Positions 31,081 to 35,251 of a stretch of DNA of 64,000 nucleotides are shown here, piece after piece. Every line of letters begins with the position of its first letter. Position 1 is the stretch's first letter. A model generated the notes under the pieces. That model had not been told where the DNA came from. It saw only the letters and a list, made by a program, of their open reading frames with translations, and made no database searches. A program made the position numbers and the translations under genes. Source of the stretch: Octopus sinensis. Its lineage: Eukaryota. The DNA is taken from NCBI RefSeq assembly GCF_006345805.1, contig NC_043007.1, positions 33,480,001 to 33,544,000 of the forward strand, read 5' to 3'.

Positions 31081-31794
31081 GTATGTGTTGGAGAAATGCA
31101 TCTATATGAATGTGTCTGAGTGTTCATTTCCCTTTGCCTCAATGTTGCACCCAAGTCGTAGACAAACATCACCATCTTACATGCAGTGTCACATTTTTAT
31201 GATCCTCTGTGGAGACAAGTCTGGCCATTCTGGGGGGGGGGGTGCTTTTTTGTGTTCGAAATAGGTGAACAATGGTAACAAGAAGAACACCCAGATGTAA
31301 AGCATCTGCTTCAAGAAACTTTATCTGCTCCATGCTCTTTTGGAAAAGTGGACACTAAACATGATGATGATGGTATTTTATACCATTTATTTTTTATTCA
31401 TTTCAGTCAGCAGACAGTGGCTGTGCTGGGGTACTATCTTGAAGAATTTTTGTCAAACAGATTGACCCCCCAGTACTTATTGATAACTTTTGAAGTCTGA
31501 TAATTATTTTATCAGTCCCTTTGTCAAACAACTAAGTTACACGAACATAAATGCACCAACACCTGTTGTCAGCTGATGGAGGAAAACACATATACAAACA
31601 CATACACACACACTACATACACACATGCACAGACACATATACGATAGGCTTTGTTTAGTTTCCATTTGCCATATGCACTCACAAGGCATTGGTTGGCCCA
31701 AAGCCATAATAGAAGTAACCTGCCCAGGGTGCGATGCAATGGGACTGAACCCAGAACCATGTGGTTGGGAAGAAAACTTATTACCACATGGCCA

Positions 31795-32142
31795 TGCCTC
31801 CTTATGAGAGCTCAAAATCTCTCGTGGAAGCGCCATCCAACCAAAATGCAAATATATGGGAAACTACCACCTGTGTCATCTCTTGTGAAAGGTAGGAGAG
31901 TCCAGTTTGCTGGACATTGTTGTAGAGCTGAAAAAGAAGTAATTTCTACTCTTCTCCTCTGGAAGCCATCTACTCACAATACCAGAGGGCACACACTCTC
32001 TTACCCTGATGTAATCTCCAGGGATACAGGTATCCAGCAACAGGACCTCCGTAATGCCATGATGGACCGTGAAGTCTGGCGTAGCATGGTAAATTCCATT
32101 GTCTCGACCACGGTCGAACAATGATGATGATGACATATGATA

Positions 32143-33660: not shown

Positions 33661-34467
33661 TGGAGGCCACAAGATGGTGGTACAGCTGGAAGCCAATAGC
33701 CAATAGCAATGGGCGATAATCCTTTATTGTTACCTTTGAGCAGTGAGGCATTTCCTTCTCCTTATTTTTAAGCGGTCTTCTACCAACAAGTCTTTGGGAT
33801 CTGACGATACACCATTAAGCTAAACCCTTTATGGACAGGAAACCTAAGATAATCCCATAAACCAGCCTTACCCATTTTCAATATGTACATACATACATAC
33901 ATACATACATACATACATACATACATACATACACATATATATATCCCTCTCTCTCTTTCGGAGAGGCATAAGCACCTACACGCACATATACACACATGGC
34001 AGTAACTTCCGCCTACCGAATTCAATCACAAAGCTTCGGTCGGCTCGGGGCTATAGTAGAAAACGCCTGTCCAACCTAATCGTGCTCAATCAAGCCCTAA
34101 CTTTTAGCATGAAAAATTCTGACACATCAATACTTTTCTCGTTGGATTAAGTGTTCACTTCTCTTCCAGTCTTCTGCAATTTTATTTTTGGATCTTCTAT
34201 ATATATGCAGAATTTTCCTACATGTGGCTGTTTTTCACTCTACAAAACGAAAAGTTGCATTATGGAACAGTCATTTTAATGAGATTTTTTATTTATTTAT
34301 CACCCAACAAGATACTTCTGCACCACTGGATATTCCTGAACCAGATTTTGTGTGTCCCACAAGAGGAGTCGATGCTAGATGTGCCGAAACAATTGTTGTG
34401 ATTAATAATATATTCTCATATATTCCATCTTCTGTCTTTCATTTATATATATATATATGTATATATA

Positions 34468-35235
34468 TCATCACAATCAAGGAAACGGGCATAATAGCCA
34501 TTCACCCACTAGAAATAAACAGCAAAGCTTCAACCGCAAAATAACATCAATTCCGTAAACCAGGAGATGTTATTTTGCGGTTGAAGCTTTTGGCTGTTAT
34601 TTCTAGTGGGTGAATGGCCTATTATGGCCGTTCCTTGATTGTGATGTTGAACTTAAAAATGGTCTATGACTATTAATTTTTTCCCACTAGGCGCGCTGGT
34701 GGCAAAAAAATTCTACAAAATTTTTTTGCCACCCTATATTGATTAATTATGAATTTTTGGTTAATTCCGTAATGGCAATCGCGGCTTATATTTATTTGTT
34801 GCCGATAAACTTGGCGCGAGTGCGATGATTTGAAAATTTTAGGTCAGATATTGCCGAGGCAGGGACGGGAATGCCTCGTGAAAAATATCTGTTCCGACTT
34901 GGCTATTTCTTACTGATGAATCTAAGGCCTATGGTAGATTGGCTTGATTTAATTAATCAGGTTAGTTTACCATTAAACAGTAGATGAAACGGTGGCATCG
35001 TATAAGAAATTACAGGGTAAATGTTTTTTTAATTTTCTCCTGGTTTACGGAATTGATGTTATTTTGCGGTTTAAGCTTTTGGCTGTTTTATCTAGTGGGT
35101 GAATGGCCTATTTTTGGCGTTCCTTGATTGTGATGTTGAACTTAAAAATGGTCTATGACTATTTAATTTTTTCCCACTAGGCTGCTGGTGGCAAAAAAAT
35201 TCTACCAAATTTTTTTGCCCCCTATATTGATTAAA
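34468..35235 (+). mobile_element. Non-coding PLE-derived / retrozyme-like element: inverted fragment + partial tandem (~490-nt period)
   Basis: 34468-34566 is the reverse complement of ~35036-35134; 34566-34746 is a direct repeat of ~35055-35234; both ends abut (TA)n. Confidence 0.8.
34905..35010 (+). ncRNA. Type I hammerhead ribozyme with intact core
   Basis: Stem I ATTTCTTA/TAAGAAAT; CTGATGA 34913-34919; stem II ATCTA/TAGAT plus 19-bp extension; GAAA 34986; stem III ACGGT(GGC)ATCGT; GUA triplet, predicted cut after 35002. Confidence 0.85.
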
Positions 35236-35251
35236 TATATATATACTATAG

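Follow-up and report, generated by a model that had tools for sequence, protein, structure and literature searches.

A strict two-site end rule in the two-armed insertions of a candidate non-LTR retrozyme family of Octopus sinensis

The non-LTR retrozymes of animals, as described in the accessible text of a study on coral, mussel and axolotl, are AT-rich, non-coding tandem units with a type I hammerhead ribozyme in each, for which expression and circular RNAs have been shown (PMC7229834). Unit lengths of 150–450 nt are given there, and of up to 972 nt in a survey of vertebrates that reports dispersed copies ranging from dimers to multimers (10.64898/2026.07.22.740005). Mobilization by Penelope-like elements (PLEs) and synthesis of tandem cDNA from a circle have already been proposed for retrozymes (PMC7229834; 10.64898/2026.07.22.740005). 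Among invertebrates the accessible text of the vertebrate survey names only insects and coral, and 235 Rfam hammerheads are given for the giant squid in that of another report (PMC6962438).

PLE insertions are described as having head-to-head arms, a microsatellite target and, often, a tail of 30–40 bp on one end (PMC8557442; PMC3846280). For the Poseidon PLE, the accessible text reports that both target strands are cut and extended from two internal reverse transcriptase (RT) start sites, with no difference in start site between the strands and the pairing of sites per DNA molecule left untried, that a dimer is predicted, and that hammerhead cleavage is not needed for insertion in vitro (PMC11167929). 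The Hydra clade of PLEs is defined by DKT and RWK motifs, a CxCX5C linker, CxxC and CxH, a C-terminal endonuclease and a (TA)n target, and one element, Hydra-1_Obim, is given for Octopus bimaculoides with a (TA)n preference (PMC8557442). Retrozymes, the circle-to-tandem route, a PLE origin, the one-sided tail and the two start sites are thus all in print as far as these texts extend. Two questions are open: how animal retrozymes enter genomes, and why the Penelope tail sits on one inverted end only. In the twin priming of L1 elements, primers from both ends of a break copy one RNA and the copies are joined at microhomology, resulting in an inversion; the internal position at which the second primer anneals varies.

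The locus described here lies in a window of 64,000 nt (the whole stretch of O. sinensis DNA analyzed). Its left flank is a (TA)n tract read from the sequence at 34444–34468, followed on the minus strand by an inverted arm of 98 nt (34469–34566) that corresponds to unit positions of about 473–489 plus 1–81 and whose 3' end, at 34469, falls at a point termed site A. The inverted arm overlaps by 1 nt, at 34566, with a plus-strand forward arm of 673 nt or 1.4 units (34566–35238), composed of one 489-nt unit (34566–35054, numbered q1–489; unit GC 37%) and 184 nt of the next, with its 3' end (35235–35238) at a second point, site B. The right flank, (TA)n at 35236–35245, passes into (AG)n, and target-site duplications are unreadable inside (TA)n. 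Two direct repeats (34566–34750 and 35055–35238) are spaced by 489 nt and are 93–94% alike. A first-pass annotation, made from the letters of the window, had proposed a tandemly arranged hammerhead element of this kind, and the core, the 8-bp stem, the repeats and the (TA)n setting that it named were all recovered at the positions it gave, as was its reading of the element as non-coding: no ATG open reading frame (ORF) longer than 47 aa lies wholly within the element. The inverted copy of the repeat that it placed ahead of the direct repeats is present at 34469–34566 as an inverted segment and is not a copy of the whole repeat; it matches 35037–35135, beginning 17 nt upstream of the repeat and ending about 105 nt short of the repeat's end.

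The type I hammerhead motif (34905–35010, plus strand) comprises an 8-bp stem I (34905–34912 with 35003–35010), the core CUGAUGA (34913–34919), a helix II region of 66 nt (34920–34985) lengthened by a 19-bp hairpin, the GAAA element (34986–34989) and a near-palindromic stem III reaching up to U35001, with UA at 35001–35002 and the predicted cut after A35002. All the elements of the type, that is the CUGANGA core, GAAA, UH and helices I–III with helix I open, are in place. It is the sole type I pattern match on either strand of the whole 64-kb window, in agreement with the single ribozyme reported earlier; as a locus with one ribozyme, the window insertion is a product that could not release a unit alone. 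The check that had been proposed, a search with Infernal and Rfam, returned no hammerhead family at E up to 10 in an 821-nt region, and over the whole window the best 150 of 337 Rfam matches were all microsatellite-like miRNA models. The 66-nt span of helix II, which sets this element apart from the non-LTR retrozymes cited above, is probably responsible for the Rfam miss.

In folding calculations a 126-nt region containing the hammerhead folds better than all of 200 shuffled sequences (z −4.5). The lowest-energy structure predicted for the window copy pairs the core with stem III; this misfold is 0.8 kcal/mol more stable than the active structure, which among the copies folded lies 0 to 5.5 kcal/mol above the minimum. 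Stem III, of 12–13 nt, is self-complementary, with a calculated energy of −16.4 to −18.7 kcal/mol as a duplex of two strands against −0.2 to −1.1 kcal/mol as a hairpin, which suggests that cleavage may need two units; in axolotl, according to the accessible text, a weak palindromic stem III accompanies poor cleavage of monomers (PMC7229834). The window copy has one extra G in loop III that is absent from the family, in which the form of stem and loop III is GAAACGGTGCATCGTA; the shorter loop III form is also found in contigs of three of four sequencing runs, all four of which cover the element but carry no information about its expression.

The unit belongs to a young and abundant family. More than 1,400 units occur in the 2.72 Gb of genome searched. 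A 311-nt query gave 2402 candidates, of which the 40 scored yielded 43 matches near 97%, full-length ones included, scattered over many contigs. For the window's subfamily an exact pattern matched 330 times (control 0), while a pattern for other subfamilies matched 1082 times (control 1) and a hairpin pattern common to a sister family 4504 times (control 13). Divergence within the window subfamily is about 1%, with substitutions averaging 1.1% over 313 units at 57 loci, and the copies are dispersed and recently mobile. The BLASTN search for tandem multimers suggested by the first-pass annotation detected arms of up to 14 units and 21 units in one locus, so that at least two consecutive hammerhead units occur in the family; the window locus has one. 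Units are non-coding and carry no attached RT. The same annotation had held that copies attached throughout to a PLE ORF, with multimers and circles absent, would mark an ordinary pLTR; none of the 81 insertion blocks mapped is continuous with one, and the PLE fragments found near some loci (tblastn with two PLE proteins) always lie beyond the (TA)n flank and are never continuous with an arm. Judged by these genomic features the element is a non-LTR retrozyme, and the non-autonomous reading put forward earlier is supported by the multimers, by the lack of any ORF-joined copy and by the abundance in the genome of PLEs with similar hammerheads and end pairing. Its 489-nt unit compares with the lengths of 150–450 nt (PMC7229834) and up to 972 nt (10.64898/2026.07.22.740005) cited above, and the type I hammerhead in each AT-rich, non-coding tandem unit and the dispersed multimers are shared with the published retrozymes, whose expression and circles were shown experimentally (PMC7229834); the octopus element is known from its genome sequence.

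The ends of the insertions follow a rule that the first-pass annotation missed and that constitutes the new point of this report. Mapping covered 77 loci holding 81 insertion blocks: 24 loci from the best BLAST matches, 33 new ones from the first 100 exact-pattern matches listed and 20 picked by hand from the first 100 hairpin-pattern matches listed. Ends were classed as site A (unit positions 76–85) or site B (180–189), which are 105 nt apart. Every block (81/81) has at least one 3' end at A or B, and all such ends meet (TA)n. Seventeen blocks have one classed end; in the remaining 64, which have two, the pairing is A+B in 63, A+A in one and B+B in none (p 3.5e-18 against an expectation of 50%), and in the two sets of loci not selected by BLAST score it is A+B in 43 of 44. 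In the 60 A+B blocks for which BLAST detected both arms, these have medians of 644 and 670 nt, both arms exceed one unit in 29, and the A arm is the longer in 31, so that either arm can be the longer one. Junction overlaps in these blocks peak at 1–3 nt (25/60), and both 5' points fall within 20 nt of each other in 11 (5 expected). At three loci (L101, L157 and L161) the second arm measures 12–25 nt and contains nothing but the site-B motif. The unrelated 5' points and these tiny site-B arms accord with two independent primings with random stops and are at odds with fold-back at most loci. The sole A+A insertion (L111:3303-3963), whose arms have nearly the same 5' points (249 and 251), may be a product of fold-back or conversion.

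Head-to-head arms, a tail on one end and a microsatellite target are features shared with insertions mobilized by PLEs, in which the tail is 30–40 bp (PMC8557442; PMC3846280) as against 105 nt in this non-coding element. Two internal start sites with both strands cut and extended are likewise described for Poseidon, for which the accessible text reports no strand difference in start site in vitro; one site per arm was counted here in 63 of 64 blocks (PMC11167929). Strict A+B pairing in two-armed insertions, and the covarying RNA platform treated below, are not described in the accessible text of the retrozyme reports (PMC7229834; 10.64898/2026.07.22.740005), and neither an octopus retrozyme nor a counted one-site-per-arm rule was found in the openly accessible literature searched. 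Where L1 has one variable point, the insertions here have two fixed ones, and either of their arms may extend over many units.

Both sites belong to a predicted RNA structure, supported by folding and covariation, that was also missed by the first-pass annotation, as was the self-complementarity of stem III. Copy 1 of this platform (34577–34696, plus strand) consists of predicted helices P0 (34577–34581 with about 34691–34696) and P1 (34603–34610 with 34683–34690), which together enclose hairpin A. Hairpin A and the site A that follows it span 34612–34646, with site A at q80–81 (34645–34646; q76–85 elsewhere), and hairpin B, just outside P0, and the site B that follows it span 34698–34750, with site B at q182–185 (34747–34750; q180–189 elsewhere). 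Each site is placed about 12–17 nt behind its own hairpin, after a similar motif; the hairpin of site A is enclosed by P1. Copy 2, in the second direct repeat (35055–35238, plus strand), terminates at site B.

Covariation of the platform was examined in 13 sequences of five families (the window family, counted together with a subfamily 70% alike, and families 2, 2b, 3 and 6), hairpin B being omitted as it was misaligned by MAFFT: 95% of cells pair and 8 of 18 pairs are changed on both sides. For the hammerhead, 11 variants gave 96% of cells pairing, with both partners altered in 7 of 35 pairs. Because the sequences tested are the related ones from which the structures had been drawn, the shuffle counts, 0 of 500 reaching the observed level in either case, are to be taken as support and not as probabilities; in slid controls for both structures, pairing drops to 29–52%. 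Helices I and II of the hammerhead show compensatory changes and N7 is U, A or C across variants with the core unchanged; core and helices are kept in this way between families about 70% alike.

Further retrozyme-like families share the platform, as represented by a 534-nt family (L142:1819-2352) and its subfamily (L190-L193), family 3 (L102:4089-4640), family 6 (L245:1497-1812) and a 475-nt subfamily (L272:1449-1923). The 534-nt family aligns to the platform with a score of 104 against 43 +/- 7 in shuffles. Both ends could be classed in 11 of 23 loci of this family and its subfamily, and all 11 are A+B, two of them being near-identical duplicates. In the 475-nt subfamily, found through the A-hairpin pattern, four of four two-armed loci are A+B. 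A 404-nt family of tandem hammerhead units (L187:3005-3408; L186-L189 and L194-L196) has P0, P1 and the terminal hairpin without hairpin A, and is single-armed in seven of seven loci, one of which (L194) abuts an assembly gap; the contrast has a Fisher p of 5e-5. The copy of family 3 at L102 has a damaged hammerhead core.

Whether both arms descend from one template was approached through substitutions seen in a single locus only, 'private' meaning absent from the 76 other loci mapped, out of the many hundreds of loci that exist. Of these substitutions there are 221. Most, 147, are confined to a single unit, and for another 35 one unit alone covers the position. Partial variants number 19 within one arm and 3 within both. 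Twelve, at 11 loci, are fixed in all covering units of both arms, as against 1 that is fixed in one arm and missing from the other; 4 more are fixed where coverage comes from one arm alone. At 15 of 44 loci no other arm is closer to an arm than its partner in the same insertion, and at 31 of 44 the partner ranks within the top 5%. Distances are 0.87% within arms, 0.94% between arms and 1.89% between loci. At L128 both arms have the same low-complexity expansion. The shared private substitutions may reflect small source lineages instead of one molecule, and arm-to-arm gene conversion or assembly polishing could homogenize the arms.

The 5' ends of arms lie away from the predicted cut in 136 of 145 cases, which indicates that the template is mostly not a cut linear monomer. 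Nine of the 145 lie at the cut site against 3.0 expected (p 0.003 for that window), a pile-up that was rejected as weak, as 43% of random sets cluster somewhere. In one case, at L160, a 48-nt deletion that stops at the predicted cut recurs in two successive units; its junction has 3 nt of microhomology, and it is at most an indirect hint of self-cleavage. In the 21-unit locus (L134+L036; C22, about 28.190–28.201 Mb) some variants recur five units apart and across the arms, for which a multimer template, a later duplication or an assembly effect is possible. A lag analysis of five arrays gave no clean period, and inspection by eye detected no fixed register between arms for partial variants. 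The five-unit spacing at C22 and the partial variants are not explained by a single monomer circle.

An enzyme able to drive the family was sought among the PLEs of the same genome. Those positive for a GIY-YIG endonuclease have frames of 775–883 aa. A young family with a 781-aa RT/GIY-YIG frame (L081-L084 and L093, e.g., L081:2173-5873; ends in L051-L080) has a second frame of 280–480 aa overlapping its upstream side, and a hammerhead-like motif at its 3' end with U3 and A8 replacing C3 and G8; about 40 nt separate its two ends. This family and its relatives were rejected as partner on account of different ends and no likeness to the unit, and BLAST found no match between the unit and 50 GIY-YIG loci. 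A PLE fragment beside a sister-family insertion (L190) proved to be a separate insertion, and patterns based on variants of stem III or of hairpin A led to more non-coding subfamilies only.

A second PLE group (11,804 candidates, 140 scored) has many frames longer than 750 aa. The motifs DKT, CxCX5C and CxxC occur in L240 and L242, with CxH in L242 and RIRW replacing RWK, and from these motifs the group likely belongs to the Hydra clade. Hydra-type frames gave no Pfam RT or GIY-YIG match, and no solved structure matched a Hydra-type ORF; the RT region aligns with a Pfam-positive PLE at 26% over 318 aa (E 5e-8), a weak alignment. Three frames of 890–1124 aa (L238, L239 and L240) have long asparagine-rich inserts between RT and endonuclease, like those reported for rotifer Penelope elements in the accessible text of PMC3846280. 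Hydra-type copies carry canonical hammerheads with a long helix II and a palindromic stem III, target (TA)n and have ends about 75–110 nt apart; 6 of 21 loci are two-armed, and the short end is paired with the long end in all six. The fold of the Hydra-type tail in the genome differs in sequence from the P0/P1 platform, and the sister family alone aligns to the pLTR (BLAST E 8e-4). Comparisons of the 534-nt family and its subfamily with the Hydra pLTR gave z of 3.4–6.3 in 7 of 10 cases, against 1 of 8 for other PLEs. Against five Hydra pLTR segments the window family reaches a z of at most 1.3, which is not significant, and by BLAST its unit matches none of the pLTRs in 50 Hydra-type loci, a small separate insertion excepted. 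A Hydra-type PLE is likely the driver of the window family, the sequence link running only through the sister family.

With somewhat more confidence than doubt, the element is read here as a non-LTR retrozyme integrated by the RT-endonuclease of a PLE, probably of the Hydra clade, that would cut both strands of (TA)n and prime one RNA at two sites; the template RNA of this twin priming would probably be a circle. Tandem loci would be transcribed, two units would join by their self-complementary stem III into a double hammerhead that cleaves, and the freed unit-length RNA would be ligated into a circle. A PLE protein dimer would sit on the P0/P1 platform, its two active sites lying at A and at B, both RTs would proceed round the RNA by strand displacement, each stopping independently of the other, and the two cDNAs would be joined head to head over 1–3 nt of microhomology.

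The same twin priming might instead use an uncleaved linear read-through transcript of a tandem locus, with the hammerhead incidental and the arrays growing and being homogenized in place by unequal exchange and conversion, an alternative that we regard as unlikely but of some weight. Unit-level variants do recur within arrays and across arms, folding calculations for the hammerhead alone give a misfold or a structure equal in energy to the active one, Poseidon did without hammerhead cleavage in vitro (PMC11167929), and in the accessible text of the vertebrate preprint eight of nine frog retrozyme dimers remained uncleaved in vitro and local amplification is favored (10.64898/2026.07.22.740005). 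A read-through origin is harder to reconcile, however, with young arrays of 5–21 units that still end exactly at A and B, with private substitutions fixed through all units of both arms, with the repeated L160 deletion that stops at the cut site, and with a core and helices conserved through compensatory changes across families about 70% alike.

The remaining explanations concern the arms and the autonomy of the element. An inverted arm could arise by fold-back or self-priming of the first cDNA or of antisense RNA, leaving one target-primed end, as proposed for rotifer Penelope elements with palindromic junctions (PMC3846280, accessible text). Such an origin leaves the stop of the second arm at the other fixed site without account and is improbable here: the 11 of 60 junctions with 5' points within 20 nt (5 expected) speak for it, but the points are unrelated in the other 49, and the arms of 12–25 nt holding only the site-B motif (L101, L157, L161) cannot have copied the end of the adjacent arm. 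Fold-back is thus largely refuted for most loci and may hold for the minority with symmetrical junctions. Least probable is that the copies are what is left of an autonomous PLE, as solo or truncated pLTRs, and not an independent element, since the units stand head to tail without an ORF, none of the 81 blocks continues into a PLE ORF, and neither the 50 GIY-YIG loci nor the 50 Hydra-type pLTRs match the unit, one small separate insertion aside; this holds even though PLE insertions have inverted arms and a one-end tail (PMC8557442; PMC3846280) and, according to the accessible preprint text, frog retrozymes derive from pLTRs (10.64898/2026.07.22.740005).

Within the preferred twin-priming reading, a more specific and tentative proposal, to which we give slightly less than even credence, is that the conserved platform seats two Hydra-clade PLE subunits on one circular RNA, with both cut ends priming rolling-circle reverse transcription at the two fixed sites. 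If true, PLE tails and inverted arms would amount to obligate twin priming, genomic proof would be at hand of retrozyme circles as integration template, a signal of roughly 190 nt for double-ended RNA-templated insertion would be defined, and a family that lost one hairpin would change over to single-armed insertion. As a substrate the family is short, young and present in many copies, its two start sites are mapped and its fold covaries; a family with one site serves as a natural control, and candidate enzymes whose open frames measure 750–1100 aa occur in the same genome, so that both the entry of retrozymes into genomes and the one-sided Penelope tail can be tested with a published in vitro assay. 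Together, the near-absolute end pairing, the platform, the one-site family and the matching autonomous elements allow a known PLE signature that lacks an explanation to be tested directly.

Hammerhead families seem very numerous in the genome. A pattern for the long-helix-II hammerheads of other families matched 2296 times (control 0), and hammerheads of this form, missed by standard Rfam models, number in the thousands. Additional families occur as chance neighbors within the loci analyzed (L018, L042, L087, L093, L110, L125, L129, L132, L135 and L178-L183), most with a long helix II and a palindromic stem III. At L035:3915-4196 the 5' end of a window-family arm directly adjoins a small insertion, itself two-armed, of the 534-nt family, possibly by nested insertion or template switch. 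Elsewhere in the window, at 31648–32124, lies a 158-aa frame that we take to resemble the C-terminal end of a LINE ORF.
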